From assembly GCA_046563655.1 (NCBI GenBank), contig CM102285.1:7254001-7318000 (forward strand): a stretch of 64,000 nt of DNA, in the 5' to 3' direction. Made by a program: the position numbers and the translations under genes. Of the stretch, positions 12,236 to 33,358 are shown in pieces. This DNA is from Yuukianura sp. NJ FZ-2021 (lineage: Eukaryota). The notes under the pieces were generated by a model. That model saw only the letters and a program-made list of their open reading frames with translations. It did no database searches and had not been told where the DNA came from. Each line of letters begins with the position of its first letter. Position 1 is the stretch's first letter.

Positions 12236-13485
12236 TTTAGTAACTCTGTGTTTCTACTTTTGTAACAAGTTTATTTACACACGGAAACTAATCAATTAGT
12301 AGTTGAGAACCGGATTTCAATTGTTTAACTGATGTATCGCCTCCTCAGTAATTTTTACTGGTAGTAATTCAACTAACTCTCTCGGCTGTCTTTAGTCAGA
12401 GAAGTAGAGAAGAGAAGGGTAATTTACAAGACAAAGAAAATCCAACGGAGATGCCACTAGTTGAGACAGTTTCAAATTTCGGCGGGTTTCTACAAAAACT
12501 GACGCATTTCCCGTGGCGTTACTTGTTCCGTTTCTTATCGCCACGAAACACTGAAAAATATAACTACAACTTCTAAATTCTGTCGGAGGGTCAGAACTGG
12601 CAGTTTAAATGCTGTGAGAACTTGTAAATGTCTTTAAATGCTAATCACATAAGTGATTGATTGCTAATTGTTCTTGGGAAATAGGTGTCGTTAAACTTCT
12701 AGTAAGTACAAAATAACAGAGGGTGAATAACAGGAGAGGAGAGGACTAACAACTTTGTGAAATGGCCTTCCTTCTAAAATTGAAATTAATACCGCAATGG
12801 CTCTTGCGGTTTCTTTCAAGAAGACCTGGAAGACATTACTACTGTACACACACAGGAGTTGCTAGGTCAAGCCGGAAATCCACAAAATCAGCGATTAGAC
12901 AACTCAGATGCCTATTTCCATTAACATTTTCTGTAAACTGCTGGAGTTACTGGGATTTGGTTTACTATTGACATTTTGCGGTTTTCATTCTCATGAAAAC
13001 TGTAGTCTTCATTTGTTGTCTACTTCAGAACCAGATTTGAGCAAAGTGTTGCAACTGAATGCCGGTTATTCAAAATTAAAACGTTTAAGTTTTTGAAGTA
13101 TTGGATGTCAGGAGCTGCCATGAATCTGCTCATGCTGTTTTAATATATAAAATGACACAAGAATGCATGAAAAAAGAATCAAAATCTTCCAAAATAAAAG
13201 TAAACGCTTATTTTTGACGAAATTTAGCTTCAAGTGGCATCGCAACAGCGTTGAGTCGACGCAACGCTGAATTCAACAAACAAATCTAGAACGACGAAAC
13301 GAGTGCAACTTTTTGTGTCTTCGCGCAACGGCATGGCACCAGTGCAGTAAAGCGCAAGTTTCCAGCAGCGGCGGCTTTTCTTCTCCAAATTCTAAATTGC
13401 TAAATTCTAAATTGGACATTCCTGCGGAGGCTTCCTTTGTTTATTTTGAATCAAGAAAAAGCTTTCACGCCTTTACACCTTCAGA

Positions 13486-14076
13486 ATGTGCGGGACATAC
13501 AATAACGGATGTGGAGGTCAGCGCAGGTCATCTGGCTCCTTTGGGCGGGTAAGCGTATTTCTCGAATCGTAATTGGTTGCTTACGTTTTAATAATTCTAT
13601 TGTTGATTTTTACAGTGTCCGCAGCGGTACTGCTCTTGTCCATGCCCGATTTCGTGTCAAGATGTCATGGGCGCAAGAGTCTGGGTATGACCCGTTTTTT
13701 AAAGTATAGTTTATTGAAGAGAATCACTTACATTAAATGCTGTTTAGGGCGTACCATGCGTCTGGCCATGTGACCCAAGGATAACGGAACCGGAATCTAA
13801 CTGCTGTCAGCGAAGATTTGTACCATTTCCAACGTGTGACTGCGGCGTAAGTGTTTCTTGTTGCTTTGTACTAAAAATTTTATGAGAATTACGTCCAGGC
13901 TTTGAAAGTTACTACAGTGCACTTCTTTTGCTTTTAGCCTCCGCCATCTTGCTACTGCAACGTCAGCCTTTGCACGCCCCGCTGCCCACCTCGATGTGGT
14001 AACAAACGCCTTCACTGTTTTAATCAAAATTCCTGACATAAAAACTGTTTCTTCTTTTTGTTCAGGGGATTGTTGA
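13486..14076 (+). CDS. Cys/Pro-rich small protein A (100 aa, 5 exons)
   Basis: Exons 13486-13548, 13616-13684, 13748-13846, 13938-13998 and 14066-14076, all GT-AG and in frame: MCGTYNNGCGG...CPQRYCSCPCPISC...PPPSCYCNVSLCTPRCPPRCGDC*. Confidence 0.75.
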
Positions 14077-14913
14077 GGACGCCATCCAACGCAAATGCAA
14101 CAAATGTCACGTCCATGATTTGGATCTAGCGATTTGATAACCGATTTTTGTAGCAGAGCATTAATTAATTAATAAGACCGAAAAGGAAGGTCGAGGAAAA
14201 CATAAAATAAAGAAACCACAATCAATGGCGTGTACCCTACACATGCTTCGATTTGTACGAATCCTTTTTTTAACAACCAATTCCTAGTTTGCATTAATTA
14301 TCGAAAGTATAGTTAGTGTATTAGTTTCTATTGGAGTGCACTTCTCCAAGTGTTGTACATGTGGAACAGCTTTTTTCCTGGACAAGAAACACTTTTTTCA
14401 TGTGGCCCTGGCAGGAGTTTTTAGCTTCGCGAGTTTTGGAAAGACAAAGATAACTTTTGGGGACATAATTATACGATATTTATTTTTATTTATTTATCGT
14501 TTTTACGCGGTTGTGTACAATTTTGTGTTTCCTGGATCTTAGCTAGAATCAAGGGGTCTTAATTATGATAATATTAAACTAGTTAAACTTCCAGCCTTCC
14601 TCAATATTTCATTCATTTTCACTTGTTTCTATAAAAGTAATTTTTTCAATTCATTTTGAAATTTTATAATGATATTTTACTTGCCAGATTTGTTTCTGTA
14701 GCAACACGGAATTAAACAAAATTCTTAGCAGATTATCAACAATTCGATGTATTTAGTGAGTCCAAACCACCAAAATTCAGTGACGAGGAGGGGAACAACG
14801 AAGAAGCTGTTGTTGCTGCTTGCTGTCCAAAATTTTCAAAATTATCCAAATTCTGGTTTTTACCAGTAGTTAGCAAAGACCCGTGTTCGACTAAATCCAA
14901 ATTCAAAAGAGAG

Positions 14914-15718
14914 ATGCCTGGAGTCCCTGGATCAAGCGGAGTAAGCCAGTTACTGAAATTCAATTAATTTTCACCAGAAATATTTAATTATAAGCTGTAA
15001 TTTCAATTTACTACAATTTAGACCTGCGGATTTGGTCCAAGTTTGACCGTATCGTTTGAATATGCTCCACCATCGCCAAGTTGTTGTAAGCACTATCTTT
15101 TCGTTGTCGCGATTTTTTTCCTGGAAGAGCGAAACGATTCCAGGAGAAGTTATTGGTGCAGTTGATCATATTTTGTTGTTTTTCAGGTGGAGTTCGCTGC
15201 TGTCCTACTGCTGTAAGTCTAACGAATACATTTCGAAAAAAGATATCCTATTCACTAATTAATGTTTTGAACTTCATGTAGCAACCTTGCTGCCCCACGC
15301 CTTGTGCCTGTCCACCCCCGCCCTGTGTAAGAAACTATAAATACAAGATTTTATCAGCAGCAGATTTTAACTATAATTGAATTAACATTCTAATTATGTT
15401 TTCTATAACTAGCCAATTCGACCGCCAACTCGCGTGTGTCCGACATGGTGCTGTGGTGCTCCCTGTCCTACTCCTGCCGGTTAGATCAAACCTAACTTGA
15501 AAACTTTACAAAGTCTAAAAAAAATTCAAAGACTGAACGTATTCTTTTTCGCAAGCTGTGCCGAAACCTACAATTCAGCCAATCCAGATCTGGGGATGCA
15601 CTCCGCATGTTTGTTGCGCATGCCCGCCGCCATGTTGTGAGAATTATACACTCATTTTTTATTTGTCCTATGTGCGATAACAACATAAGTCATTTATTAC
15701 ATTTCAGGGTATTGCTGA
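14914..15718 (+). CDS. Cys/Pro-rich small protein B (106 aa, 7 exons)
   Basis: Exons 14914-14940, 15022-15085, 15187-15212, 15282-15326, 15413-15479, 15556-15636 and 15708-15718: MPGVPGSSGTCG...CCGVRCCPTAQPCCPTPCACPPPPC...PTIQPIQIWGCTPHVCCACPPPCWYC*. Confidence 0.75.
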
Positions 15719-16096
15719 TTGCCTGTGCCTGCCAGGAGCATTTTGGGGAAAACATTTATCCTCAAGAAATTGTAGTCGGTAGATGTAAAAATTGAACAAG
15801 TAATAGCTAAATCAATTGTTTGAACTTCAAAACAATGAAGTAGAAATAAATGCCAAAATAGACGACACATTTCACGAAGAATCCTGCCGGTTCAGTTATT
15901 CAAGCATGTACGAACGCGTTTTAAGTCATTTCCATGACGACATGCACGAACGAGATTTCTGAGTTTTCGGTACAATAACTTTGCGCTGTTTCAATGTCGG
16001 ATGCGGGACGACATCCAAAAAATTACTCAGCTAATAGAGACCCTGTCAAGAGTTGTTTTATTTTTCAAATTCGAAATTTGATTTCCTGTTACGAAA

Positions 16097-16718
16097 ATGT
16101 GTGAGCGAAACAAAAACTGCTGCGGGGAGTACCTGGCCGCCGTCATCGTAAGTCTCACTGTTTGATAATTCAATATGTAGTTCCATTATTAAAAGTTATT
16201 TTAAACACTTCCAACAGAATCAGCCCCGGAATTATTTCGGAAATCAAAAGCGTGGAAACCCCTGCTCAGCCATTATGCCTCAACAGACTTGTATAAAAAG
16301 CATTTTTTTTTTCAAAAATTAAAATTTGTATTCAACGCACTTGCTGAATTACTATTTCGTAGGTGAATTTGGATTTTCTTGCTGTCTTCCAACATGTTGT
16401 GTAAGTTTCAAAATCGTAAAGGAAAAAAATTTCAGCAAATTAATAAAATGGTCGTAAATAAACAGCCACACCCGTCGCTTTGCGTTCAGCGACGACAACC
16501 TGAACCGCAAATGATCTGCTACAACCCGTGCGCTTGCCCAATTCGTTGCCGATGTGCTGGAGAATGCTGTCCCCTCACATACTGCTCTCCGCCATTCATG
16601 CGTAAAAAAGACATGATTTCTATCATCAATTCCATTCATGTGATGGATGACTGATATTCAAAAAGTCGAACTAAACTTATTTCCTTTTCTTTTTTCTTAT
16701 GCAGCTCCATTCGTCTGA
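16097..16718 (+). CDS. Cys/Pro-rich small protein C (103 aa, 5 exons)
   Basis: Exons 16097-16147, 16218-16290, 16363-16400, 16466-16601 and 16705-16718: MCERNKNCCGEY...CEFGFSCCLPTCCPHPSLC...PCACPIRCRCAGECCPLTYCSPPFMPPFV*. Confidence 0.7.
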
Positions 16719-16846
16719 AAACCCTCGGCGTGCCGTGCCATGTACGACTCACAGAAAATACCGAATTTTCGACAAAATTTTGTCCTAAACTAACGTTTCT
16801 GAAATAAATTTACAAAATTCTTTGAAACGTTCCAAAATCGGAACAA

Positions 16847-17307
16847 ATTCGGCAAAACGGCGCTTCGATTGTTTGCGAATAAAATATCATTTTATATCAA
16901 TTTTTGGGCGTAGATTCCGAATCTGAAATCCGTTTTTGGCGGTCGCACCTCCTTCCTGGTAAGATTAATTAATTAACATTTTAATTAACAGTGAGTGCAT
17001 TTCATATGTAGAATGAGTTTGTAACCAATGGAGATTCGAATTTATTGTTGTTATATGCTAACCAAACCTAACGCGCGCCTTCGGCGCGGAGATATAACAA
17101 ACAACAATCCTTGGTTTCCGTTGGTTACACCACAAATTCTCATTCTGTATATCAAATTCACACTGTTAATTAGAATCTTAATTAATTAATCTCACCAAGA
17201 AGGAGGTGTGACCGCCAAAAACGGATTTCAGATTCGGAATCTGCACCCAAAAATTGATATAAAAGGACATTTTAATCGTAAAAAATCGAAGCGCCGTTTT
17301 GCCGAAT
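16847..17307. mobile_element. Palindromic MITE (~460 bp)
   Basis: attcggcaaaacggcgcttcgat... at 16847 pairs with ...atcgaagcgccgttttgccgaat ending at 17307. The arms are ~200 bp and the centre has taaccaaacctaac and a gcgcc-ttc-ggcgc hairpin. No clear TSD. Confidence 0.8.
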
Positions 17308-17490
17308 ATAAGCCCCAAAATCTCCTGGGCAATGAGCGACAGGTTATTGTGATAAAACTTTAGCACGTCACGTTTTACATCGTCAGCGCAGCAGCGTTAT
17401 CTTCTACAACACAAAAAAAGTCACACTTTGTAAAAATTTGGAACTTTGTGATTTCCAAATTCCGAAGCATTTCAAAATTCCAAAGTCTAA

Positions 17491-18251
17491 ATGATTCGTT
17501 CGCAGAATAACCCATGTGTAAGTTAAATTTTCGGTCATACAGCCGTCGGAACTTGTAATTTAATTTGTTTTAAATCTCCACTTTAGCTTCAACCCTGCTG
17601 CTGTTGCCCTCGAAAGGCATGTCTCCGAAGTGGACTCACTCTTCGGGTTGACCCGATGCCTTGCTGTCCACCACTGCCTTGTTGGAGTATGAACTTTATA
17701 AAAAAAAAAGATTTTGTCATTATATTTTGCAAATATGAAGAAGAAGTACTAAATATATGTGTTTATTTGCAGAGAACCCTTATGGATGTTGTTGTCCACC
17801 GCGCTGCGTACTAACGATAATTCATTTAAACAAAATCTATAATAATGAAATATTATTGACCTGTGACCTTTGACCTCCTCTTAGCCATGTGACCCAACAA
17901 CGGTGTACTTCCGTGGCCCGCCACCAATACCCTCCACCTCTTCTTGTCCCACTGAAGAGGAACTGTGCAATTTGCCGCTCCACCGACTCTACACGCTGCT
18001 TTGTCCCAAGTGCCCGCCGAATACCGAAGTTCGCCCCACACCACGCCCTCCGCCAATTCCGTTTTATCACATCGATGGGTGTTGTCCAGGTATATTTCCT
18101 ACAGTGGTTTAAAGTTACTGCTTAGGATTCAAACTACATAACTTTTAACCAGCTCAATGAAATCCCTAATGTCTTCTTCTGCGTGTTGACAGGAAACTGG
18201 AAATGTCCGTTCACCCCTTGTGAAGAAGCAGCTTTGATGGGACGCCACTAA
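17491..18251 (+). CDS. Cys/Pro-rich small protein D (141 aa, 5 exons)
   Basis: Exons 17491-17517, 17587-17686, 17773-17807, 17885-18089 and 18193-18251: MIRSQNNPCLQPCCCCPRKAC...PMPCCPPLPCWKNPYGCCCPPRCPCDP...DGCCPGNWKCPFTPCEEAALMGRH*. Confidence 0.7.
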
Positions 18252-18298
18252 AGTTCCACACGAAAACAGAATCAGAGATGATGAGAAATTTAATTGTA

Positions 18299-20152
18299 GC
18301 GTTCCGACGTAAAACAACACGACTCAGATTTTGAAAATTTTCTTCCCGTGGAAACCAAAAAAGTAAACAAAAATCGTTAAGAGTCGGCACTGAAAATTGT
18401 TTCGCTCAAGTTCAAAGAAGCAGTGTACGTCTTTTCAATTTTAACGCAGAATACTGAGTAAGTTTGGATTCAAATCGTAAGGCTTTCGTGTAGTGGCGTT
18501 TTGTAAAAGTATTTTGTAATGTAAACTGGTCCATACCTAATTAATCGCCAAGAAATGAATCGGTTTTTGAACTTACAAAGGTTCCAAGAAACCAGCGAAT
18601 CACTGCGCAAAATTGTGTCGCTGATTTTTTAACACCATCTTTTGGAGCCATAACGAAGTAGCGACAGTATTGCTGGTTCAGCAGATTGAACGCCGATTGC
18701 ACTTTATTTCTTCTCGAGCAATTGTGCCACCCGCACGAAAATTCTTAGCAAGTAAACATTGACAGAAAAATTACAATATCATTAAAATTTAAAATAACTT
18801 TCAGCCGTTGAAAGTGGCTAGAATGCCACTTTCATCCGAGGAAAGTGTTTAGAATGTCACTTTTAAGCCGCTGATATTGGTTGGAAAGTCACTTTTATCC
18901 GCTGACAGTGGCTGGAATACCACTTATCCGTCGAAAATGGTTGGAATGCCACTTTCATCCGCTTGATATCCAACGCTGGATGAAATGTCGAAAAAGTGGA
19001 TATCAACTAGTACGATATCATCGAAAAAAGTACTATCATCCAATACAACTAAAACTGGGAATTCAAACTTTATGAGATTTCTGAAAGCGTTGTTAAATTT
19101 AAATATATTAATTTGCGAAATTATAAAACGTTTCTTTCGTTGGTTCATTATCTGTCATCAGTATCTATTTGTTTGAATTGTGGGCTCATCTCCTACGTTC
19201 CTTCCATCGAATAATATGCTTGGTGTTCACCTTTTAAACATTTTATCCAAAGCTGGATAAAAATGGACCAAATGAAGAAGCCAAAGAGGTGGGCTTAATT
19301 AATTAATTTGAAATTAAAAAACAGAAAAGATTCAAATAAAGTATGCAAAGCAATACCAACAGAACAAGGATAGCTCTCTAGAATAGCAGTGGAGATTTCT
19401 ATTAATTACTCTTTATCTCCGCAGCAGTTAATCCCCAAAAGCACTGGGAAATTGGTATATTGTTCCTAGCTTAAACCACTGTTTCTGGATACCCACTTTT
19501 CGACATTGCGTCCACCGCTGGATATCCAGTGAAAGAAATGGACGAAATGGATGAATCCAAAGGGCGGAGCTTTGCCCGCACAGTCTGAATGATTTAAAAA
19601 TAAAAAGTGGAAACAAGTCAAAAACAGTATAAAAACAGCTCCAAATCGTGCTATAACAAAACCAATCAATCAAAAGAGGTATAAATAATTAATTAAATTA
19701 TTCCATAAAAATTATTTAAAATTTATATGAAATTGGCGCTGAGTTTTTGAACTCAGCTGATTTCTTCCATCCACCGTCCAGTAGGACCCCATTTCTTCCA
19801 CTGGATATCCAGTGGAAGTGGCAATTATGCCACTGCACGTTTAAGCATCCAGCAACACTGGCTTTAACGCATTAGCCAGACGGACATACGAGCCGATTCC
19901 TACAAGTAGTATCTAACGATACTTACAACTGAGGTACAGACCGACATACAAAAGCTTAAACTGTCTCGTTCGCAACGAAATCCAAATTGTCCCACAAGTT
20001 GATAACTTTCAATTTCACTCAATTTGCAACAATTTTGAATCGCTAATTTCATGGATAATTTTTGCCGATTTTGCTGATGTTTGTTTACTTTTTTCAATTA
20101 GCAACACAAGTCGTCAACGGTTTTTGAGTTGTGTTGTTTTACGTCGGAACGA
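18299..20152. mobile_element. Non-autonomous TIR DNA element (~1.85 kb) with internal inverted and tandem repeats
   Basis: A ~27-bp TIR cgttccgacgtaaaacaacac(g/a)actca at 18300 and ending at 20151, with TA one base outside each side. Inside are an inverted pair (18965-19003 vs 19488-19527) and tandem gaatgccactttcatccg repeats at 18820-18960. Confidence 0.65.
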
Positions 20153-20382
20153 TAGAATTCTAGCGATCTTTTGTATCCCAAATATTGATTTCATGGCAAT
20201 GAAAAATTGAATTAAAAAGGCTAACAAACAAACTTTTCTGGGTGTGGCGGTTTGTACTTTTTTGCGACGATGATCTGCTTGTAAAACGCTAAATTACGAA
20301 AGGAATTTCGAAAACCGGTCGCGGTCGGATCCAACGAGAACCGAGTATTTCTGAACAAAATTTTAAATTACTCAACCTGAAA

Positions 20383-20967
20383 ATGTGTGGAAGCTGCGCC
20401 TGTTGTGTAAGTACATAATTCCTTGAGACTGGTGAAGTCTTTTGCTAACCAATTGTTATATTATAGGAACCATGCTGCAGAGTTAATCCACAGCCGGCTT
20501 GCTCAACTTGCCCCAGACTGGCCTTGGTTTGTTCGTTGTCGAACGTTGGACCTGCGCCTTGCGTACCTCCACCGCGTCCTTGGGCTCGCCCTTCACGTCA
20601 ATGCTGCATTCGTCCTTGGATTCCGGTAAAATCTAACAGTAAAGTTCCACTTCACCTATCACCTAAAAAGTTGCTAACTGAATACGCAGAATTCACACCG
20701 TTGTCATCCACCACCACTCTGCTCCGTGGCTATGAACCAACCACCAATCAAGAAAGTCTATGAAATTCGCTACTTCATGCCTGAGACCTGTGGCACCCTT
20801 CCTGGATACTGCCGATTCCGGACTATGCCACCACCAGCATGCGTAAGTCCAATCTAAGGCTTTTCAATTCATTCAAAATCACAAAAACCACCACAGAGTT
20901 CTAAGCATTACGTCGCTTTTTGTAGTCTGGACGTCTCGTCCCGTCCAAATTCATGACGATGTGTTGA
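20383..20967 (+). CDS. Cys/Pro-rich small protein E (125 aa, 4 exons)
   Basis: Exons 20383-20406, 20467-20625, 20690-20842 and 20926-20967, all phase-0 introns: MCGSCACCEPCCRVNPQPACSTCPR...RQCCIRPWIP...MPPPACSGRLVPSKFMTMC*. Confidence 0.75.
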
Positions 20968-21623
20968 TCATTTGGCCAAACAACAAAAGTATACGAGAAA
21001 TCTCAAAAATAGTTCAAATTGAATTTTGAGTGCCAATAAATGTTCATAATACAATTTGACGTCAAAGACTAAAATAGGATTTATTTTAACATCACAAGAA
21101 TGGGTATTCCTCTAATCCAAAAAGATGAAAGTTAAAATGTAGTGTTACTTATTGCATTAGTATAAATCACATTAGGAAATTGCCTAAATCGAGTGACCTC
21201 AAATTGACGCGAAAGGAGGTGAAGGTTATGATGCATTGAGAGGTATTTTAGCATGAACTCTTCAAACTTTCATATAAAAGTCATGGTCACCAGATTTCAC
21301 TTCTGATGGGGTAATAATATCTAGGAAGTTTTGAATTATGAAATAAGCATATCGTTCTTCAGATGTTTCGTATCTTGAGACAGGAACTTGCTGACTCTAC
21401 GCACATTTTTGTTATGTATGTTAAAATTAATCAACTGAACTAATGAAGTTCTCTAATTATATACATGACTCTTGGAAGTAATCGATATGGTAAAGAGGGA
21501 TCCAAAACAATTAAGTGCGGAAATAACTTGTGTAGGTTGGGAAAGTTGTGAAGACAACGTTTGTAAAGTGGGTGGGGCAAGCGGTGGATCAGACTTTTTG
21601 AATAGTTGCTGCGCATGAGCACC

Positions 21624-24600
21624 TTAGACTCGCTGGTCATCGGAATCGAGCGATACCCGGCTGCAAGTAGAGTCCTCGTCTCCCTCCATTGTAAACGTTA
21701 TCTTGATTCCGGTATTATCCTTTTCCAGTTCAACTCGGCGTGCTAAAATTACGCAAAAAATCAAACTTTGAATAGAATCCTTGCGACTTATTTAGCACAA
21801 AGGCACCTACCTTCTAAAATGGCTTCCAATTCGGCTTCAGTATTGCAGTATTTGAATGGAGTTTCGGAGTCCTGCATTGCTCCCATGATTATGCGCAGAA
21901 TAGAAGATTTCACCCGCCAAAGAACAAGCTCTTGGTTCTTTTTGTGAAAACTGCTAAAGATGTCCTTCATTCCTCGTGCGGCCGTAAAATCGGCAAATTG
22001 AATGTGTTGACAATCAATTACGACCGGAAGTCTGCCCTTGGCCCAATTCACACCAGACTTGAGTACAACATAATTCGTGTACTCCACCGACGGGAAAGTT
22101 AAAGAGCGATCCAGCTCAACCAAAATAAACTCAACCCCTGTAGATGTCTGCGAAAAATAAAAAAGTAATGAACTTGGTTAGTGACACATAAATGAACTTC
22201 GCGGTGAAGTTTTGAGCATGGTGCTAAACTTACCTCTCCACGATTGACACGTACTCCAGGACGAGCTGAGTAGTACATAAGGAAGATCAGACTGATCAGG
22301 AATCCACAGAGAATTCCATACTCCAGGCCTAGGAGCAAACTGATGATGAAGGTCACCCCCCATGGGATAATGTCCATTCCTGTGAAATTCATTAGCCTTT
22401 AAACTTTAAACCTTTAAAAAAAATTAAAAACTTATAATTTTGCTTGTCACGTACGTTTACTTTTCCACATCGGCCGAATGATTCCAAGATCAATGGTGAA
22501 AATTACAGCGCACACGATGACCGACGCAAGAGCTGCCTTTGGAATATAGTAAAAGTATGGCGTGAGAAATTGAAGGGCCAAAATGACTAAGGTTCCAGTG
22601 ACAAGTCCGCCCATAGGGGTCTCCACTCCTGATGCATGGTTGACCATAGTTCTTGAAAAACTACCAGTGACTGGCATGGAGTTGCAGAAAGCTCCGATGA
22701 GATTCGAAAGACCTAAAGAAAACAAACCACAAAAAATGAATTTCCCACGAATTGAAAACATTTCACAAGAATTAGAAAACATGGGTTTATTCGCAGTATA
22801 CCAATCGTGATCATTTCCTGGGAAGCATCCACACGTGATGCAGGCGAGACAGCTTTTGCTACAGTGATGTGCTCCATAATAGCCAAGATAGGTATAACTA
22901 GTAAGCCAGACGAAGACATTTGGACAACGGAGGAAAACGTGTATTCAATAACTTCTCCATTGGTGTCATTGCCGCTAAATTGGAAAACAGGAACCTGAAA
23001 GGCTGGAAGTCCAGAGACGATGTGACCTACAGACCAGTTCAAACCAATTACGTCATCGTTGGTTGACCACTTTAAAAGTTGTTTTTCTGGGTTGATGGAA
23101 ATTTACCTACTACTGCTACTGGAGGTGGATCTCCCCATACACCGTAGAAGATTGTGCAAGCAACTACCACGATTGCGGAGCGTGATGTGGATAAGAGCCA
23201 TAGTGTCTTGTCAAGGACTTTCCATCTTTTGGCGCAGCTAAAAATCCGTTGAAGGTACTAAAAGTATCCAGAGAAGACATGATTTATGATGTGATTAGCA
23301 CAAGTGTGAGATTAATCTCGGTATTTTTGTTTTGAACTCCTCTTAAACTGTGACATATTATGACATACTTGTAAGAAAATCAAGGAAGTGATACAGACGA
23401 CACTGAGCAAGAGGTCATGGAGTTTCGTGAGATGAACTTCAGCGATGAGCCCCTTCACTACGTCCACGATACCATTGGCATGAAAACTGAGGCCAAGGAG
23501 AGACTGAACTTGGGTGCTAACAATGGTGATGGCCACTGCTGAAGTGAAACCGGACATAACAGGAGTCGAAATGAAGGTTACAATGAATCCCAGTTGAAGA
23601 ATGCCCATGCAGAGGGTGATGATTCCTGTCAACAGGGCGAGAATTACCGTGAACTCTGGTGGCTTTCCACCGCCATAAGTCAAGGTGATGATGGCCAAAC
23701 TCGCCTAATCCAAAAAATAACAAAGAATACATTGATAACATGCCGGTTAATGTCATCATAGTCAATCAAATTTAACAAAAGCATGCAGTGGATTGACATA
23801 TTGATTGAGTGTCACCTGAATGTTCTCTTTTAAAGTATTTTATAGCAATCTGTTTTTATCAGTACAGTGATTAGAAGTCATAGTTTTAATCGCGAATTTG
23901 ACTCACCGTTGGTCCGATATTGATTGCCTTTGTAGAACCAAACACGATGTATACGAAACACCCAACAAATCCACTGTAGAGTCCATACTAAAATATATAA
24001 TTACAGTATTAATAATAACAAATTGTTTCAATTCAGAAAAGGCAAATGAAAGTGAAAATAGTGGGAAGTGAAATGAGCATGAGAAAGTAAAGAGAAAGAC
24101 GGTAGGACACAAAGAAAAATACACTCAATGCATCTGCGAGGCGACGCACAGAAAGGAGGAGACGCATATCGGCATATCGTTGACATTCCTCACTATTTTC
24201 GTTTACTTGAGTTTATGTTTTTGAATGGAAAAATAGAAAAGCATGGGAAACCAAGGAATTTTTTGACTTTGTTTTCTAAAAATAGCTGAGAATGGGTTTT
24301 AAGTATCTTTTACCTGTGGTGGAAGTCCAGCTAATCCGGCATAAGCCAACGCTTGTGGTAAAATTGTTAACCCAACAGTAAGCCCCGCAATAAAATCACA
24401 AATAGCTTTGTTGAAATTGTACTTTGGAAGCCAACTAAAGATGGGAACTTTGCGGTGCAAGGTTTTCTTTCTGAAAGTATTTTTGGACCATTCTTGAAGT
24501 CCTTCCATGCAAGTCGGACCCTCAGCCTTGGAATCCACGAGACCCACTTCTGAGGTCGAGTGCTTTCCATTGGCCGCAGAAGACACAATGACATTGTTGT

Positions 24601-24700
24601 TTCCACTACCAACTGGATTGTTCAAGGATACTTGCGATGGCACTCGGGAAAGCCCCGACAGGCTCACTGAACTGTACGAATGGATCAACTGAGTCTTCAT
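21624..24700 (-). CDS. SLC26A11: SLC26 sodium-independent sulfate/anion transporter (SLC26A11-like)
   Basis: PIFSWLPKY, DFIAGLTVGLTILPQALAYAGLAGLPPQYGLY, FISTPVMSGFTSAVAI, MPVTGSFSRTMVNHASGV.TP.GG, FYYIPKAALA and a C-terminal STAS domain; multi-exon, stop at 21624. Confidence 0.9.
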
Positions 24701-27700
24701 TTTGAGCAGCACGGAAAATTGAGCACTTCAAGTGCCACCGTTTCAAGCTTTCTCCGAACTAAAAAAAAACGAAATTTAGTACTTTGTACCACTTTTGTCT
24801 AGAAATTCGTGTCGAAAGGTCAGTGACACGAGAGGAAGTTGCTTTACCTTACAAAAACAACTTCCTTTGTTCCGGCTATTGAGTAGGTTCTAAATGCTGA
24901 TTGCCTTGCGTTTGGGAAAAAACGACTAAAATGGTTCACAGCCGATACAATTAAAACGTGGCAAAAACATAAATTGTCAAATGATTTTCGTAAGGTCAAA
25001 AGTATCATTAACAAGAATATGGCGTGGGGTTTTGGCGTTTTAGATACGCTTGTTCATACTCTTGTTAATCGATGTTGATTGACAATCTAGATAAATAAGG
25101 AAGAAGTGGAAGTAATGCACTTACACCGCACTCAAATTAGCACTTCTCGCGTTTGATGATTGCTCATGACCTTTGCAACTATTTTCCTAATTTCTGTAAA
25201 TAAGTCACATGCACAATTTACATCAATTGGCTGATTTCAAATTGTGTCCACCGATTTTTATATCCAAACAGGAACAATTAATTAACAGCAAGAGCAGAAC
25301 TTTCCACGCGTCAAACTTCAACTTGCACGCGTCAAACCTCAAATTGGCAGCACTTCTAAACGCTTCGACCTCCACAATTGGACTGCCCAGTGCCCAGTAA
25401 AAGACACAAACTAAAACCTGTCCAGAACAGTCGCGTGCTTTTTATAGCCCAACTTTCCCATGCCCTCTGTACTTTGAAAATGCGGACCGTGGAAATGACT
25501 CTGAGGTGTTACTCCTGCCATGTTAACAGTCCAATGCGCCTGCGTGGTTTGTGGCACAACAATGGTAAGGATACCCTATTAGCACTTAATTCCACATTTA
25601 GCGATTGACAGAAATCTCCCCAATTCCCCATACCATTTTACTGTTTATGTCCTCATCTTCTCAATTTGCAACACTTTTAGCTTTGATTAGCCTTTCACAC
25701 CTTCATGTATGGGTAGGGAAAAGGCATTAGCCTTCCATATTCCATCCACCCCCTCTGATTCCCAGAATTGCCTTAGTTGGCCTAGGCAAAGAGACACATT
25801 TTGGCACATATTCTCGCAACTGATTTTGCGAGAGGATATCGCAATTTGAGATGCTGTAGGTGTTGAATGTTGATGTTTGGTAGGATTGGGTAGCGTCATG
25901 GCGGAATTGGCAAAGGTTCATTTTACGTAGAGGTTGAATTTGCACAAAACAAGTCAAATCAGGATTTTCCCTAGAATTCACAAGTCGCGTCGTCGGTAAC
26001 TTGATACGACAAACAATGAATGATATGGTAAGTGTTGATGCCAGTGTCCCTACCTCTCAAAAGAAAAACTCCCCATTTCCTACCTAATTCCCACACTAGT
26101 TTAATCCTGTTGAGATTAATTGGTACCTTTGGCACAAAGGATTTTAAGGAAAATGGGGGAGGGGAAACAATTGGATAGAAGAAGAGAAAAGCAAAACATT
26201 TTCTGCACAAGATCCAAAGGCGCTTAAAAGACGCCTTCCCAGAAGAAGCTGGACGATTTTTTCTACTGGTGTAATTAAATCTGTACTGTGTTAATTAGAA
26301 TGACATTGACACGACCTTTCCGGATGGTTCCCCCTCAATTTTTGGCCTAAACGCGACCTGATTTTTTAAAAATATTGCGGGAAACTGTCCTATTCAGTCC
26401 TATTCCAGTTGAACAATCCACATTAATTACATAACAATTAAAAATTGGGAGACTCATAATGAAGAGGAGGATCCATTTTTCCGTTTAGTCGTTTTTATGA
26501 AACCACTTTAGAAGAGGGAACAATGGGACAGTGAATTTGTCATTCATGATGGACGAGTGTGTGGAGCCAGGTGAATCTGGATTGCGTGAGTACAGACAAT
26601 GCTGATTATCCCATTATGGACACTGAAAAATAGTGGTAGTAAAGTGAATAATTGGCGGGTAATTTCAAATTAATTGGAAAGAGAACAATGAGGTAATTGT
26701 TAGGACATTTGGAATGATCAGTTGGTGACATGGGGGCGTTTTGGTTGAGGCTTCATTGCTCTTGTTCAAGGACAAATGCCTTGATCTTGAATAATTCTCG
26801 TGTGACTGGGACAAAGATTCGGAGCTCGTGGCTGTGCAGAGATCAAGGTCAAGTGAAGGTCACGTGAAGGTGAAGAGTGGAGATGGTGTACGTGGTGTGT
26901 GGGCTCATGATTTACGATATTGATTGATCGGCTGTGTAGTTTTGCAAACCTGGATTAAAGTTTTAACAAAAACGAAGTGAAGCGGTGAATTCGGTTTAGT
27001 CATGGTCTAAAATCAAACTTCGCCGCCCCTGTGCATATTTATACAGTCGCAGTACACATGGCGTCCACTTTCGAAATACTGGAACTAACTAGAACTACCT
27101 CCACGCTGTTCCGTGAATTTCGAGTGCGTCATATGAATTAAATGGAAACAATAATTTTTTTTACGCCAAACACGAGTGTTGCTCTCAGCAAAGCTTAATG
27201 AGCTAATCATTCATCTGTGCTAATTTTCGGAAATGTGCAAAAAAAAAATTAAACTCATGGATTTTTTTATTAGGCTATTTTCAATTTCACAGGAAGTTTA
27301 TGACATTGGATTAAGTACTTGAATCTATTTAAATAGTCAGTTTTAATTCTGTACTCGTTTTTGTTTTTGAGTCCATAAAATTAATGACGGGCGATCCAAT
27401 AATCAAGTTGTGCAAGTTTGGCACATATTTTTGCAATACGTTCAAAAAAAAACTAATAAAAGCCGCATTGTGTCCTCTGTCCACGGTTGCGTCATTTGGA
27501 TTAGCGCTACTTTCCAGAAAAGCTCCAATTTAAGCTTCTTTTACGACTAGTTTTTAAATTGAAATCTCCCGCCATGAAACTATTTGACGCACAAAATCTC
27601 TTTTCAAATATGGAATTAGCTATCAGAATTACGCAAATTCAACGTGTGATGTGAAGGACTTGTAGCCTAAATTTGATTTCCATATTTCGCAATATTTTAC

Positions 27701-29068
27701 ATTTTGAAAAATGAAATAGACAAACAACTTGGCTTTTGACCTTGGAAGACCTTGAGCATTGATTCTGTCCTAACTTTGAATTTTCATTTTGGCAGTTTAT
27801 TTGCCGTTCAACGTAACATAATGCTGAGCAGGTCGAAAAGAATCGAGCATTGCCAAAACTTCCCATGAACTTTTTCCCATGTCACTTCCGTAATTTTTTG
27901 AAATTTCAAAGGTTGTATTTCAAAATAGAAACCGGATGTCAATTATTTCCTTCAAAGGATACTGTTGTTGTTCCTTTTGAAACTGAAGCAAACACTAAAT
28001 AACCTTGGGGTAGTTGGAGAATTTTAAACCTGGTTCTAATCAAAATTAACATGAAATGTTTTTCCTCATCGATTACGTAAACGGTGTTAATTGTTGTTGT
28101 CGTAAAACCGGATCTTTCTAGAATTGTTCAAATCATACTGGTAGAATCTAGTTTTATCTAGTTTAATCTTGACTTAAGCAAGAAACACGGTGAAAGGACT
28201 TCAGGTTACTCCGCCCCTCTGCGCCTCGCCCTGGTTTTGACCTCGCTTTTGGCCGGGACGAGGTACACCGTAAGTTCGCAATACCCCAATCACGGGATGT
28301 CGCCTGTAAACTGCAGAAGAACCTGCTTTCATCCTAAGCTTTCATCGGAGGTGGCAAAAAACAAGTGGATTTCAATACAATTGGCAAAATCTGTCTGGAA
28401 ATCCCTGGTTGACCAAACCATTCTTCACTTTTTGCAAGATTTTTTTAGCATGGGAGAAATGTTAATTAACACTTCTAACATGCTAAAAAACTAAACTGAA
28501 GAATCGATTCGGCTCATCAACTCAAAGATTTATTAGAGGGTGGTGCACAAACAATCTCGACAATTGGAAAATGCATTTTCCAATTGTGGGGAACATGTTC
28601 CCCAATTTCCATAAAACTTGTTTGCCAATTAACCAAACCCTGAAGAGTTCCAGTTAAAACCCGAATTATTTGTGTACGTGATATGGAAATTCAAAATAGC
28701 TTTTGTCACGTTGCAAGTTTAATGGCGTCAAAGGTCATGGAATTTGACCTTTGGTCTGGAGTAGTTACGTGAAAACTTAATTTGATTACAGTTTTCCAGA
28801 CTTGATATGTACATAAACTAAGTTACCAAACAGGTAAGTTAATTAAGTTCAGAGTGATGTTTTTGGCAAGATTCAAAGGATTAGTGTTAGGTAGTTTTGG
28901 ATTAAAGTTGGATCTGGTTTTATTTGAGCTTTCAACGGAAAATTTTGAGAAATGACGAAATAAACTTTGGTTTCATGTTCTTGTCCTTTTGACTTTTGCA
29001 ACTTTGCGAAAAGTTTTTGTTAGTCTTTTGTTGAATTGGGCAAAATATTTCTGAAGTGACGCCTTGGT

Positions 29069-29699
29069 TTAGCAACAGGTAGGATAATGTTGGGTGCAGC
29101 CGAGGATTTGAACTGGTTGGATGGTCGGACAAGGATTGCAGCAAGGTCCACAGCATCGCGATGCACATCGCTTCCGACGACATGGCACTGGACCCTGTTC
29201 AACAAACTTTAGAACATCAAATCAGTACGAATTAAAGAAAACAAAGAATTCGAAAATGCTCACGTAGCAAAGTGGTTGGCAAATCGTTGGTCGGCACCAG
29301 TCCTTCCATCGTGGTGGAGCTGGAGCAGGGCAGTAAGTCATCGTAGAGTACCGGCGCACCTTGTCCGTGCATAAATGTTGGAATGAAACTTTACAAACTT
29401 TAACCAAAATGACTTACAACGCTGCAGTATGATGGATAAGGCGATAGTCAGGACAGCACATCTTCGGAACTCCTCGAATGGGATCCCGGTGACAATTGCG
29501 TGGAGGACAGCATCGATTTGGTGGCTAAAAATGAGAGAAATCTTCAATTCAGTTGTCTTATTTCTGCTTCTAGTTAGAACAGCACTTACACAAGTTGGAA
29601 CGCATCCAACGGATTGGCAAGGACGGGTCTAAAATACAAACAAACTTTTATGACACTTATACTCAAAAACGATTCTAAAAGGCAATATCTTACATTCAT
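29069..29699 (-). CDS. Cys/Pro-rich small protein F (~124 aa, 5 exons), with one apparent 1-nt frameshift near 29440
   Basis: Exons 29699-29694, 29628-29590, 29524-29418, 29359-29264 and 29194-29069: MNTRPCQSVGCVPTCPPNRCCPPRNC...KMCCPDY[fs]PYPSYCSVVRRY...RCCGPCCNPCPTIQPVQILGCTQHYPTCC*. Confidence 0.6.
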
Positions 29700-30751
29700 G
29701 ATGAAGTACGGAGTCAAAGTGGTCGCTTCGAAAAAACGGCTGGAATTTGGAAACTGATTTTGGAGAGTAATTTTGGAAGAAGCGACATGCTGCCTGTTTA
29801 CAGTGGTCGGATTGTAAGAAAAAAGTTCGGTCGCTTTTTGTAACAAACGTTGATGACAACGTTGCCGTTGACAACTGAGTCGGTTGAAAGAATGAAACAG
29901 TGAACAATGTACCCATATAATTGATTGAGGACCGACCCGACAGACCCAAAAGACAAAGAATAAGTTAAAAATTTCTTACTTTGGTTTTTGAAAGTATAGA
30001 TTTGGCGCGTCCAAGGTTGTGACGCCAAGTCTCCTCAACACAACATCCGGTTATGAATGGGAAATCACAAACTCGCAAATTAAGATTATTGCAACCGAGA
30101 AAATAAACAAGAATTTGGAATTACTTTGGATAAGTACTGCTCATTAATTAAACATTATTCACCGATTTGCACCTCAAAATGTTGAAGTTCAAGTCTTTCC
30201 AAACTAATCAAAACGTTTTCTTGAATCCAGATACAAACGTAGCCAACATTAGAACCTTGAAGCTTTGGTTTCACGTTTTCATCACTTGAGAGTTGACATT
30301 ACTGAAAAATATATGACATTAGTATTTAAACAAAGCGGAAAAATATTCGGAATGAGATGAACTTTAACGGATCACTCAAATTAATTAAAAATCCGGAAAG
30401 ATCAGCGTCCCACAATTGTTATTTTTATAGTTTTTAACACTAATTTGAATCATTTGAATAATTTTAGTCCATCGTCGGCCTCCTCAATCGAGGCCCAAAA
30501 ATTAAACTAATTTTGACATGATCTGAAAAGTGAAATTTTCAGTTGCTAGGGCGACAACCACAAGACAATGTTCATATTTGTTTTAGTATTTTTTGAAATT
30601 TCGAGTTCCTGGTTTTGAAAAGAAGGAGGGAGAAGCCAAACGGAGTTGATTTCAGTTCTCCGCTCCGGCAGAATCGTCGTCCACGACTTCCCAAATTCAG
30701 TCCAAAATTCTAAAATTTTCAAGATCGCGTTGAAGATTCTAGACTGACGAA

Positions 30752-31453
30752 ATGGCGTGCTGCGTTGAACCATGCAATAAATGCTGCTGCGTAAGTTTTC
30801 TTTTATTCTGATGTCCCTTTCTGGAGTTTATGAAGCATTGGTTTTGTTAATAACGCATTTCTGAAACCTTTGCAGCCTCCACCCCTGTCGCAGTTATGCA
30901 ACATCGGTTCCTGCGTAAGTTTCAATTCAACACATAACGCAAACGTTGAAAGTAAAAGTAACTAAATGCCTATACTTTCATTTACAGTTTCGGCCGAGCG
31001 CCCTTTGTTCTGCGCAAGCCTGCTGCAGTCCATGCATCCAACCTTGCGGCTACCTCCCACCACCGCGACCGCTTCCTGCAACAGCCTGTGTTACAGTTTG
31101 TAGCGTCTGCAAGCCTCCGCCTTGCGTAAGTTAACCGTCTTTTGAACTAATCCATGCTAGAGTTATATTGTACTAAAAGATACTTTCTCTTATAGCCGCA
31201 ACCATGCAGACTTTGTCCAATTGTGCGCTGTTCCAAGATGCTGTTCGTGGCTCCACCTCAACGCCGTGGCTTTGCTCGCTACTGTCCACCGACGTCTGCT
31301 CTTCCGCGGAATTGCGGCTGCAAGTCCCTGCGTCTCCTTCCACCTTACGGAGGACGGTTCGTTCCACCAATGCGATTTGCACTTGACAACTGCTGCACCA
31401 GACGCCAGCGATATGGTCTCACTTTTACTCGCAACGCTTGCTGCTACAAGTAA
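30752..31453 (+). CDS. Cys/Pro-rich small protein G (157 aa, 4 exons)
   Basis: Exons 30752-30790, 30876-30914, 30988-31125 and 31196-31453, all phase-0 TGC|GTAAGT donors: MACCVEPCNKCCCPPPLSQLCNIGSCFRPSALCSAQACCSPCIQPC...NACCYK*. Confidence 0.78.
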
Positions 31454-31608
31454 TTCCTGCCCGCCTCAAACTGACGTTACTCACTCATGTCAAAATTATA
31501 TTGCTTGATTCTATTTCCAAATTCAAAAGTAGCCAATTCGAAACAAGAACTGAATAAATTGTCATTTAAAACTTTCTCCGAGAAGAGTCAACTTTTAGTG
31601 ACGTAAGT

Positions 31609-33358
31609 TTATGGCTTGAATGTTCTGATTTCTCCGCCTTCAATTGCGATGTGATGAATTTTGCCGTCATCTTTTAAGTCTCCTTCTGGAATTCCGGTTG
31701 ATGCGGTTGTTACATACAGACCGAATTTTCCTCGATAAGGACCAAATGCCACGGAGCTTGGGATTTTAACTCGTGGAAAAGCGACAGAATTTACTACTCG
31801 AGCTGAAACAATTTTTAATAAGGTTGGACGGATTCATGATTAAAAAAAACTTAGCATTACTTCGTAGTGTAAAAAAAAAAAATGACTAACCAGTAATTGG
31901 ATTAATCCGTACGACTCTTCCTCCGTTCCAAAGTGCCACCCAGATGAATCCGTAGGAGTCAATACTGAAACCGAAATTAAATTAAAAGATTGCACAAAAA
32001 TAAAATTTGATTGAGCAGAAATAAAATGTGGTTCCGCAAATATTTTAGTGCACAAGAATCGATTCACTTTGCGCAACAAAATAGTTTGTGCCGTAAAAAC
32101 AAGCAAGCAAAACTTACGCCATTCCGTCTGGGTATTCGTCAGGAACAAAATCTGGATGAGTGGCGCAATCAATTAACACCCTTCTATTGGCTGCAATAAA
32201 TCAATCAAAAGTGTTGATAATATCTGACAGGTAAATATGTGAAGCTTAACTGACTTACACAATGTTCCCGTTTCAAGGTCATACTCAAAGGCATAGATTT
32301 TCCTGCCCTCGCTGTCATTGAAGTAGAAGTCCTTGGCTTCTGGGTCATTTGACCACGCCATCCCATTTGAAATAGTAAATCCAGTGGACTGTTTTACGAA
32401 TGTGGATCCTTCTAAACGGTATAAAGATCCACCTTCAGGAATCGGTGGTCCACCATTACCGCTCTCCAGCACAGTTCCAATGAACAAGCGTCCTCTAGGG
32501 TCACACTTGGCGTCATTGAATCGCTCCAAACCGTTAAGCTCGGGTGACACCGTGGCGACATGTTCCGTTGCGCCGTTAGCCCAGTTCAACTTCCGTAGAT
32601 GATGAGCATTCGAAACCAGAAAGTTTTGATGATCTTCATATGGAATTATAATGGAAACTGGAAAGAAAATACGCTGATTCAGGATTCAGAAAAGTTCTTC
32701 TGATTATGAAAACAATGTTGTTTGCATTGCGATTTGCGAATGCTTATAATTTAACAAATTCATTGGTCACTATAAGGTGACTTGAATAAGTTACAGAAAT
32801 TATAGAATTTATAAGTTATTTTGAGTTATAGAAGTTAAAAATTACAGAATTGAGGAGGGTCCGCCTCTTTCCAACCGCTAGTTTTTTATAGCTTGAAATA
32901 CGATGTCACCACTCGCTATAAATTGTATAATTTCTATAATTCATAATACAGAGTCCGTGTATTACCTAGACCTGAAGCCAGTGCCACAGAAGTAGAGTTG
33001 CCAGTTGTGGGGTCAAGACGGTGGAATGAGCTGGTAAGGGCGTCGACGTAGTAAAGATGGCCGTCATACTGGTTCCAGTAAGGACCTTCGCCTAACTGGG
33101 CAACATGGGAGTGTGACACAACAGAAATTGTTGTATAAACCGGCGGTAGCGTTTCATCGTTGACTGAAAATTTAGAAAACCAAAAATAAATGATATCCTA
33201 ATCCGCTATTTTTTTTTCAAAATATTTATCGTATTTGATTTACGACGCCGTTCTGCCATTTGGGACTCACTGGTTGTTATTTCACCATTGGCTCCAAAAT
33301 ACCTGAATACAGAGAACAGAAGAAGCAGTAGTGACAATGAAACTGGGAACAATGCCAT
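31609..33358 (-). CDS. Regucalcin/SMP-30/gluconolactonase family protein with N-terminal signal peptide
   Basis: LGEGPYW, LYYVD, RFNDAKCDPRGRLFIGT, ISNGMAWS, PDGM and SSVAFG..LYVTTA. Exon 1 begins MALFPVSLSLLLLLFSVF. Confidence 0.88.

Follow-up and report, generated by a model that had tools for sequence, protein, structure and literature searches.

Does the cysteine-dense part of this stretch of DNA (64 kb, hereafter the window) encode genuine proteins, and what would such proteins do? In the six frames of the window there are 15 stop-free segments with at least five Cys per 20 aa, and 13 of these lie inside 13607-20760 or 29072-31131; one of the other two is at 5161 and one is within an exon of an SLC26 transporter gene. 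Models were built by a splice-aware search begun at each ATG, with scoring that rewarded Cys and Pro, and describe a cluster of seven many-exon genes, A to G (Table 1), with A to E arranged head to tail and F and G forming a divergent pair beyond the SLC26 gene. All seven start coordinates are ATG codons, the models have 4–7 coding exons encoding proteins of 95–157 aa, and the 28 introns are all GT-AG and 58–103 nt long. The original prediction, of seven genes assembled from 4–7 exons with canonical GT-AG introns and four proteins with a terminal Cys, agrees with these models, where that residue closes A, B, E, and F, and its size range of 100–157 aa holds for A, B, and D through G, although C falls below it at 95 aa.

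Because the search rewarded Cys and Pro, exon alternatives remain at the 3′ end of C, the exon 3 donor of D, and the 6-nt first coding piece of F. The C donor at 16291 is weak (GTATAA), while a long pyrimidine tract accompanies the acceptor of C at 16704; the D donor at 17808 is also weak (GTACTA), and exons 3 and 4 of E, below the acceptor threshold of the search, were set by reading the sequence. All three G donors are GTAAGT.

Table 1. Coordinates in the window of the predicted genes A to G, their upstream motifs, and downstream signals.
Feature	Position	Strand	Description
Gene A	13486-13548, 13616-13684, 13748-13846, 13938-13998, 14066-14076	+	5 coding exons, 100 aa, C-terminal Cys
Gene B	14914-14940, 15022-15085, 15187-15212, 15282-15326, 15413-15479, 15556-15636, 15708-15718	+	7 coding exons, 106 aa, C-terminal Cys
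Gene C	16097-16147, 16218-16290, 16363-16400, 16490-16601, 16705-16718	+	5 coding exons, 95 aa, 3′ end uncertain
Gene D	17491-17517, 17587-17686, 17773-17807, 17885-18089, 18193-18251	+	5 coding exons, 141 aa
Gene E	20383-20406, 20467-20625, 20690-20842, 20926-20967	+	4 coding exons, 125 aa, C-terminal Cys
Gene F	29699-29694, 29628-29590, 29524-29418, 29359-29264, 29194-29069	-	5 coding exons; 124 aa and Cys-Cys end with extra exon 3 base
Gene G	30752-30790, 30876-30914, 30988-31125, 31196-31453	+	4 coding exons, 157 aa
One-base length polymorphism, F exon 3	29441..29442	-	Base absent from window
TCCAAATTC, gene A	13384..13392	+	102 nt before start codon, with three TAAATT variants after it
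TCCAAATTC, gene B	14845..14853	+	69 nt before start codon
TCCAAATTC, gene B	14896..14904	+	18 nt before start codon
TCGAAATTT variant, gene C	16071..16079	+	26 nt before start codon
TCCAAATTC, gene D	17454..17462	+	37 nt before start codon
TCAAAATTC variant, gene D	17472-17480	+	
ACAAAATTT, weakest variant, gene E	20355..20363	+	28 nt before start codon
TCCAAATTC, gene F	29743..29751	-	52 nt before start codon, gene strand
CCCAAATTC variant, gene G	30690-30698	+	62 nt before start codon
CCAAAATTC variant, gene G	30702-30710	+	50 nt before start codon
Poly(A)-signal-like hexamer, gene A	14206..14211	+	130 nt past stop
Poly(A)-signal-like hexamer, gene B	15845..15850	+	127 nt past stop
Poly(A)-signal-like hexamer, gene C	16803..16808	+	85 nt past stop
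ATTAAA, gene D	20211..20216	+	96 nt past stop in allele without 1864-nt insertion
Poly(A)-signal-like hexamer, gene E	21035..21040	+	68 nt past stop
Poly(A)-signal-like hexamer, gene F	28919..28924	-	145 nt past stop
Poly(A)-signal-like hexamer, gene G	31553..31558	+	100 nt past stop

Six lines of support for the models are independent of the Cys-rewarding search, namely GC contrast, intron lengths, GTAAG donors, synonymous variants, codon divergence between B and F, and the low Cys of models from control ATGs. GC content is 0.550 in exons (2564 nt) versus 0.302 in introns (2133 nt), and GTAAG is present at 17 of the 28 model donors versus 40 of the 2139 GTs (1.9%) on both strands of 13000-32000. 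Between 13400 and 21000, 11 of 14 plus-strand GTAAG occurrences are model donors, and the minus strand has four GTAAGs. Among the best 40 of 1251 variants, 14 are inside gene spans (10 intronic and four exonic); the exonic changes, though few, are all synonymous third-position differences, all in gene A (13542, 13545, 13636, and 13768), and the five in the span of gene B are all intronic. The peptide PTIQP[IV]QI[WL]GCT is common to F and exon 6 of B, and in the corresponding 14-codon stretch 11 residues are kept, with seven of those codons synonymously different; the first, second, and third codon positions account for 2, 2, and 10 differences, respectively (binomial p = 0.004). With the thresholds used for the genes (at least four exons and at least 95 aa), models came from 19 of the 396 control ATGs, none exceeding 5.2% Cys, and the models of A, B, and G under these thresholds have 18–19% Cys.

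We are confident that these genes are real and under selection. Alternatively, a stretch rich in Cys codons might hold only decayed pseudogenes, open frames arisen by chance, or noise that is transcribed. Such non-functional sequence would fit the blank homologue searches, certain weak splice sites, and the broken frame of the window's F, but this explanation is most improbable in the face of the GC contrast, narrow intron lengths, donor enrichment and strand bias, the exclusively synonymous exonic variants (4/4, among the best 40 of 1251), the B/F peptide with its differences mostly at third positions, the Cys ceiling among control ATGs, and an insertion allele that restores the F frame. If expressed as modelled, the cluster represents seven unannotated genes overlooked by ORF-based scans.

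The F insertion allele was evaluated in four genomic DNA runs: the extra exon 3 base is seen in X1, X3, and X4 at all depth and is absent in X2. With this base, exon 3 measures 108 nt and all five exons can be read in the Cys-rich frame; with the window's own letters, normal splicing leads to an early stop, or else a doubtful 22-nt exon is required. The window's F allele is frame-broken, reflecting either an assembly error or tolerance of loss by at least one member.

Relationships among the seven proteins are distant. B and F are the sole clear pair of 21 (z 3.3, with 0 of 200 composition-preserving shuffles reaching the score), followed by the weaker pairs E-G (2.7), B-C (2.6), A-D (2.2), A-E (2.0), and B-G (2.0), and the remaining 15 have z below 2 and are at chance level. 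No DNA repeats of at least 40 nt linking the genes were found, and on this basis the genes are judged to be old; together with the chance-level scores of most pairs, this bears out the earlier view that the members are highly diverged. Gene architecture is shared in two instances, with A and B ending in coding pieces of 11 nt (9/11 identical) that follow a phase-1 intron, and C and D having the same intron phases (0,1,0,1) and third exons of 38 and 35 nt; the common architecture that had been proposed is seen for these two pairs. Because most pairs are no closer than shuffles, common descent of all seven is only a possibility; the proposal of one family is partly supported, with the B-F match in its favor and 15 of the 21 pairs at chance.

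All seven proteins are rich in Cys (14–19%) and Pro (14–26%), with a net charge of +3 to +18, 4–10% Gly, and 6–9% Phe+Trp+Tyr. Each contains 1–7 CC dipeptides, and C-x-C and C-x-x-C spacings occur 0–4 times each per protein. N-termini are Met-Cys in A, C, and E and Met-Ala-Cys-Cys in G, and C-termini are Cys in A, B, and E, Cys-Cys in F, and Cys-Cys-x-x in G. No hydrophobic N-terminal core was found in A to G, the top Kyte-Doolittle 10-residue mean being 1.59, which upholds the predicted absence of a signal peptide; the proteins are therefore expected to be cytoplasmic. Pfam returned no families for 18 exon peptides (E up to 1), with sensitivity limited by the use of single exons of no more than 85 aa as queries, and querying exon by exon against PDB, a set of 1.84 billion representative proteins, word-indexed proteins, and metagenomes likewise brought up nothing related, a blank that for the representative proteins holds at least for the largest exon. 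These exon-wise queries leave the proteins without assignment to a described family. If expressed as modelled, the cluster would be a taxonomically restricted family and a clean case in which to study how Cys/Pro-rich cross-linking proteins come about repeatedly.

A sequence motif, TCCAAATTC, is present 18–102 nt 5′ of four genes (A, B, D, and F), with variants 5′ of the others, and is a new observation here. Across the seven upstream stretches of 150 nt each it is found five times (0.09 expected), and TC.AAATT 10 times (0.36 expected), the latter in five of the seven genes; an exact 9-mer was present in at least four of seven random 150-nt stretches in 13 of 1000 control sets. In addition, AAATTACTC is common to E, C, and F. 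The common element and its variants suggest that the genes are switched on together, and they probably constitute a co-regulated set; if the genes are expressed as modelled, TCCAAATTC offers a handle on co-regulation of young gene clusters. The core of the motif fits the core TCNAAATT of the 12-nt TCE (ACATCNAAATTT), which, according to PMC3439415, is a hallmark of the Drosophila Mst(3)CGP genes as well as of many testis-specific core promoters, sits at +28 of the Mst(3)CGP leader, and is conserved down to ~25% in distant Drosophila species. The full TCE 12-mer is not enriched in the 64-kb window (75 matches with up to two mismatches versus 65 expected), and only two of these matches are upstream on the gene strand, before B and C.

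What might the proteins do? Keratin-associated proteins (KRTAPs), SPRRs, ODF1/SMCP, and Mst(3)CGP proteins all form disulfide cross-linked insoluble scaffolds, and by analogy we propose that the seven putatively co-expressed genes would give rise to small, basic, Cys/Pro-rich cytoplasmic proteins that presumably lack structure at first; disulfides between molecules, formed by their numerous cysteines, would then generate an insoluble cross-linked scaffold. The most likely site would be the late male germ cell, a choice made by analogy alone. A disulfide-cross-linked structural role is evenly balanced in our judgment; spermatid expression is possible but rather doubtful, and the sole pointer to the male germ line is the upstream motif resembling the TCE core. 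Taken as a whole, a lineage-restricted cluster of cross-linked proteins, perhaps of the male germ line, is our best explanation and is offered tentatively, its lineage restriction included. A sperm-tail role is plausible from composition and the partial motif likeness to the Drosophila TCE core, but would be impossible if the host has aflagellate sperm. The mammalian SMCP and ODF1 are structural proteins of sperm, basic, rich in Cys and Pro, and cross-linked by disulfides, and A to G are likewise Cys/Pro-rich and basic, with no sequence relation found in PDB, Pfam, or representative proteins.

The Drosophila Mst(3)CGP genes (Mst84Da-d, Mst87F, and Mst98C) resemble A to G in being small, Cys-rich, signal-peptide-less, and clustered, and according to PMC3439415 they have a short A/T-rich element with core TCNAAATT near the transcript start, to which the core of the motif 5′ of most of the predicted genes bears a partial likeness. 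As described in PMC10645079, they encode Cys-Gly-Pro repeat proteins that are structural in the sperm tail and without which the axoneme and nebenkern derivatives are not normal. This defining repeat is absent from A to G: the CGP tripeptide occurs once in A, once in F, and in none of B, C, D, E, and G, and A to G differ further in having only 4–10% Gly, no full 12-nt TCE match, 3–6 introns per gene, and exon peptides without a Pfam hit. It is quite unlikely that the cluster, in a distant animal lineage, independently reached or anciently kept the Mst(3)CGP package, in which clustered cytoplasmic Cys-rich proteins would disulfide-harden a sperm structure and a TCNAAATT-type element near the transcript start would both drive the genes and delay translation. 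Were this so, a TCE-like element would be an older or more recurrent male germ-line signal than the Drosophila data suggest.

The same features can be read in other ways. The proteins could be cross-linked structural components of somatic cells, for example epidermal or bristle-forming cells, analogous to KRTAPs, SPRRs, and LCE proteins, which are also Cys/Pro-rich with CC and PC motifs, cytoplasmic, tandemly arranged, and presumed to harden by cross-linking. Composition, absence of a signal peptide, and tandem clustering fit this as well as they fit the sperm class, several N-termini are Met-Cys or Met-Ala-Cys-Cys, as in many KRTAPs, and germ-line specificity rests solely on the partial motif likeness. 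A somatic role is nonetheless unlikely: none of the 18 exon peptides (up to 85 aa) hits a keratin-associated, cornifin, or LCE family in Pfam (E up to 1), the shared motif includes the TCE core, and disulfide-hardened intracellular somatic tissues are little known outside vertebrates. KRTAP genes are moreover single-exon, whereas A to G have 4–7 coding exons in a host with a short-intron, invertebrate-like genome.

Metal binding or redox buffering is improbable. Small, Cys-rich, cytoplasmic proteins with C-x-C and C-x-x-C spacings, encoded by tandemly amplified genes, do recall metallothioneins, often also in tandem, and copies could serve dosage. However, metallothioneins are ~30% Cys with few or no aromatics, well apart from the Cys and aromatic shares and high Pro of A to G; none of the 18 exon peptides matches a Pfam metallothionein (E up to 1), and the genes have diverged too far to look like near-identical dosage copies. 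Should the genes prove somatic or metal-induced, they would be an annotation lesson and biologically ordinary. The terminal cysteines could alternatively be palmitoylated or prenylated and so anchor these small proteins in the plasma membrane or on an organelle, as the Met-Cys (A, C, and E) and Met-Ala-Cys-Cys (G) N-termini and the Cys-containing C-termini of A, B, E, F, and G might suggest. This is very unlikely, as no C-terminus matches a CaaX box with aliphatic residues, Rab-type CC motifs require a Rab fold, and Cys is distributed over the full length and not confined to the ends. The preferred reading remains that of a cross-linked scaffold.

The very short exons and small genes missed by ORF scans are also reminiscent of the schistosome micro-exon genes (MEGs). 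MEGs have symmetric exons, 6–36 nt long and divisible by 3, and secreted products; the cluster has internal exons of 64, 26, 67, 73, 38, 100, and 35 nt, which are not multiples of 3, and proteins with no signal peptide. At the 3′ ends, AATAAA or ATTAAA is positioned 68–145 nt past the stop codon in six of the seven genes.

The window carries seven multi-exon Cys/Pro-rich genes (A–G), as the original prediction held: an ATG is present at all seven starts, and each start leads into a model of 4–7 exons built by an exhaustive GT/AG path search from that ATG, completed in places by reading of the sequence (see table). The predicted length range of 100–157 aa stands for A, B, D, E, F, and G, whereas C encodes 95 aa, and the models of F, C, and D have been corrected. 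The proteins contain 14–19% Cys and 14–26% Pro, with 1–7 CC dipeptides each and a net charge of +3 to +18; four end in Cys, and none has a signal-peptide-like hydrophobic core at its N-terminus, both as predicted. A six-frame scan of the window identified 15 Cys-rich stop-free segments (5 or more Cys per 20 residues), 13 of which lie at 13607–20760 or 29072–31131, with the remaining two at 5161 and in an exon of an SLC26-type gene.

Genes A–G, the upstream 9-mer TCCAAATTC and its variants (positions relative to the start codon), and the intervening transporter gene
Feature	Position	Strand	Exons	Length (aa)	Ends in Cys	Model or domains	Upstream words
Gene A	within 13486–20967	plus	5	100	yes	GT/AG search	TCCAAATTC at -102, gene strand
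Gene B	within 13486–20967	plus	7	106	yes	GT/AG search	TCCAAATTC at -69 and -18, gene strand
Gene C	within 13486–20967	plus	5	95		GT/AG search, end by sequence reading	TCGAAATTT at -26
Gene D	within 13486–20967	plus	5	141		needs weaker donor threshold; end by sequence reading	TCCAAATTC at -37, gene strand; additionally TCAAAATTC at -19
Gene E	within 13486–20967	plus	4	125	yes	completed by sequence reading	ACAAAATTT at -28 (only variant)
SLC26-type anion transporter gene	21788–24727	minus				Sulfate_transp and STAS in several exons; separates A–E from F/G	
Gene F	29069–29699	minus	5	124	yes	frame-broken in window; completed by sequence reading	TCCAAATTC at -52, gene strand
Gene G	30752–31453	plus	4	157		GT/AG search	CCCAAATTC and CCAAAATTC at -62 and -50

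Because the path search favoured Cys and Pro, evidence independent of composition was sought. Exons of the A–G models have a GC content of 0.550 as compared with 0.302 for their introns, and the 28 introns are all 58–103 nt long. The donor sequence GTAAG is used at 17 of the 28 model donors but accounts for only 1.9% of all GT dinucleotides in the region. Between 13400 and 21000 there are 14 GTAAG sequences on the plus strand, 11 of them model donors, versus 4 on the minus strand, and a reading of this segment from the opposite strand was dropped on account of this bias. A poly(A)-signal hexamer follows the stop codon by 68–145 nt in six of the seven genes. As controls, 396 ATGs from four parts elsewhere in the window were run with identical thresholds. 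A model with 4 or more exons and 95 or more aa resulted for 19 of them, and Cys in these models did not exceed 5.2%, as compared with 18–19% in A, B, and G.

Comparison of the window with four public DNA sequencing runs (X1–X4) gave genomic contigs only, which are continuous through the predicted introns, with no contig joint coinciding with one. The contigs do reveal allelic differences from the window, and among the best-supported 40 of 1251 differences there are 14 within the gene spans, 10 intronic and 4 exonic, the latter all being synonymous third-position changes in gene A. Exon 6 of B and the last exon of F have in common a 14-residue peptide in which 11 residues are kept, 7 of these with synonymously different codons, and differences fall 2/2/10 across the three codon positions (p = 0.004), which argues for long-term purifying selection on that frame.

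Gene F is interrupted in the window, where sequence reading gives its exon 3 as 107 nt and normal splicing then meets an early stop. The contigs of X1, X3, and X4 have an extra base behind 29441 at all their depth, absent from X2, and with this base the Cys-rich frame is continuous across all five exons. Since the base is absent from the window and restores the frame, the window copy reflects a null allele or else an assembly error of one base.

The proposal that A–G form a single family is only partly supported. B and F have similar proteins (z 3.3, reached by none of 200 composition-preserving shuffles) and five further pairs score at z 2.0–2.7, but the remaining 15 of the 21 pairs are no better than chance. 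Architecture links some members: A and B end alike with an 11-nt coding piece (9/11 bases identical) giving x-x-Cys-stop, preceded by a phase-1 intron located one base past a Pro-Pro-x-Cys codon run, and C and D have the intron phases 0,1,0,1 in common together with third exons of 38 and 35 nt, respectively, that carry a G-x-CC-x-P-x-C peptide. The introns of E, F, and G are exclusively phase 0. No DNA repeat of at least 40 nt links any of the genes, in keeping with the high divergence originally described.

A feature new to this analysis is the 9-mer TCCAAATTC, which recurs upstream of the gene starts. Counted over the 150 nt upstream of each of the seven genes, the exact word occurs 5 times versus 0.09 expected, and the looser TC.AAATT 10 times versus 0.36 expected; E, C, and F also have AAATTACTC upstream in common. 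Some exact 9-mer common to at least 4 of 7 random stretches turned up in 13 of 1000 control sets, with the window satellites included among the controls. An unbiased test of one-mismatch 8-mer coverage does not tell the actual upstream sequences apart from controls (7/7 coverage in 10 of 200 control sets), and because this test is non-discriminating the motif claim stands on the exact-word counts. We read TCCAAATTC and its variants as a shared element of promoter or leader, such that the genes of the cluster are likely co-regulated. An extra exact copy of TCCAAATTC lies between F and G at 30111–30119 on the minus strand. Over 29484–30750, between the starts of the divergently oriented genes F and G, sequencing depth reaches 2- to 10-fold that of single-copy sequence, indicating a repeat within their shared upstream region.

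The upstream word contains TCNAAATT, the core of the TCE of the Drosophila Mst(3)CGP genes. PMC3439415 describes the TCE as the 12-mer ACATCNAAATTT, positioned at +28 of each of the seven Mst(3)CGP genes; among 190 testis-specific core promoters it is enriched in 45%, and its conservation drops to about 25% in distant Drosophila species. According to PMC10645079, the Mst(3)CGP genes encode Cys-Gly-Pro repeat proteins, and deletion of the Mst84D genes results in abnormal axonemes and nebenkern derivatives. Allowing up to 2 mismatches, the full 12-mer shows no enrichment in the window (75 versus 65 expected) and occurs upstream of B and C alone; unlike the Drosophila proteins, those of A–G lack CGP repeats. 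With the full TCE unenriched, the repeats missing, and the TCE itself poorly kept in distant Drosophila species, the resemblance carries modest weight, as a lead rather than as membership of Mst(3)CGP.

Searches for relatives used single exons of up to 85 aa, which limits the scope of the blanks that follow. The Pfam check, part of the original prediction, assigned no described family to 18 exon peptides of A–G (0 families). With the 85-aa G exon 4, phmmer returned nothing at E up to 0.001 against 1.84 billion representative proteins, and the ESM Atlas no usable match; phmmer against the PDB gave nothing at E up to 10 for G exon 4, D exon 4, or E exon 3. Word-indexed proteins gave none for G exon 4 (near and longer lengths) or D exon 4 (longer lengths). 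Two metagenome loci matching G exon 4 (L001 and L002) were rejected as spurious, being bacterial-looking with GC contents of 0.67 and 0.61 and without any Cys-rich exon set. An exact look-up of three proteins of the window in a 15-billion collection returned none of them; the genome is probably unannotated there, so blanks for close relatives carry little weight. Literature on similar families yielded nothing beyond mammalian or Drosophila background, and AlphaFold2 on G exon 4 alone was uninformative (mean pLDDT 45.2).

The cluster is a putative orphan variant within a class already known, that of Cys/Pro-rich proteins able to cross-link. The original interpretation is supported in part, and its claim of a genuine cluster encoding such signal-less proteins stands. 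Non-function is disfavoured by the evidence from gene structure (GC contrast, short introns, GTAAG donors, and poly(A) hexamers), from control ATGs, and from selection (synonymous exonic changes, the B/F codon pattern, and the base restoring the F frame). We suggest that the products would be cytoplasmic, largely unstructured, and basic, and that intermolecular disulfides would turn them into an insoluble matrix. Cys/Pro-rich cross-linking proteins are typical of late male germ cells, and the matrix might perhaps form there, a more tentative step than the others and a softer version of the spermatid expression originally favoured.

Rival readings would place the cross-linkable proteins in a somatic KRTAP/SPRR-like role, or take them as lipid-anchored small proteins. 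The metal binding put forward as an alternative, in a metallothionein-like role, is disfavoured, as Cys is at 14–19%, aromatic residues make up 6–9%, and Pro is high. A protamine-like role was dropped, Arg and Lys together amounting to just 4–14%.

The window has a GC content of ~0.40 throughout and derives from an animal genome with short introns. Adjoining frames match the Pfam domains malectin, enoyl-CoA hydratase, SMP-30/gluconolactonase, actin-like, a C2H2 zinc-finger array, and a Tc5 transposase domain; an Atlas search with an SLC26 exon returned the generic sulfate permease family only, and Rfam gave no matches. A 1864-nt insertion at 18292–20155 is skipped by X1 and X3 contigs (joint 18291 to 20156), begins 40 nt past the D stop codon, parting D from an ATTAAA at 20211, and contains 29–32-nt tandem repeats at 18793–18961. 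Its terminal inverted repeats of ~25 nt and very high depth (thousands versus about 250) make it look like a polymorphic, high-copy DNA transposon. Between C and D, an inverted repeat at 16847–17307 (147-nt arms, 92% complementary, 167 nt apart), within the high-depth bin 16804–17437, looks like a MITE-type element. Two adjoining frames of 191 and 156 aa at 7173–8219 have no Pfam match, though by eye a motif makes them look transposase-like. A C2H2 zinc-finger frame of 210 aa that begins with Met and has no interruption (38602–39234, minus strand) adjoins another frame, one with the C-terminal domain of a Tc5 transposase (37457–37837). The animal origin is deduced from a Pao retrotransposon, as Pao/BEL elements are metazoan; its 1779-aa frame (48063–53402; Peptidase_A17, DUF1759, DUF5641, and integrase zinc domain) is intact and is flanked by 154–155-nt satellite arrays organized in larger repeating blocks at 40554–47000 and 54137–63115.
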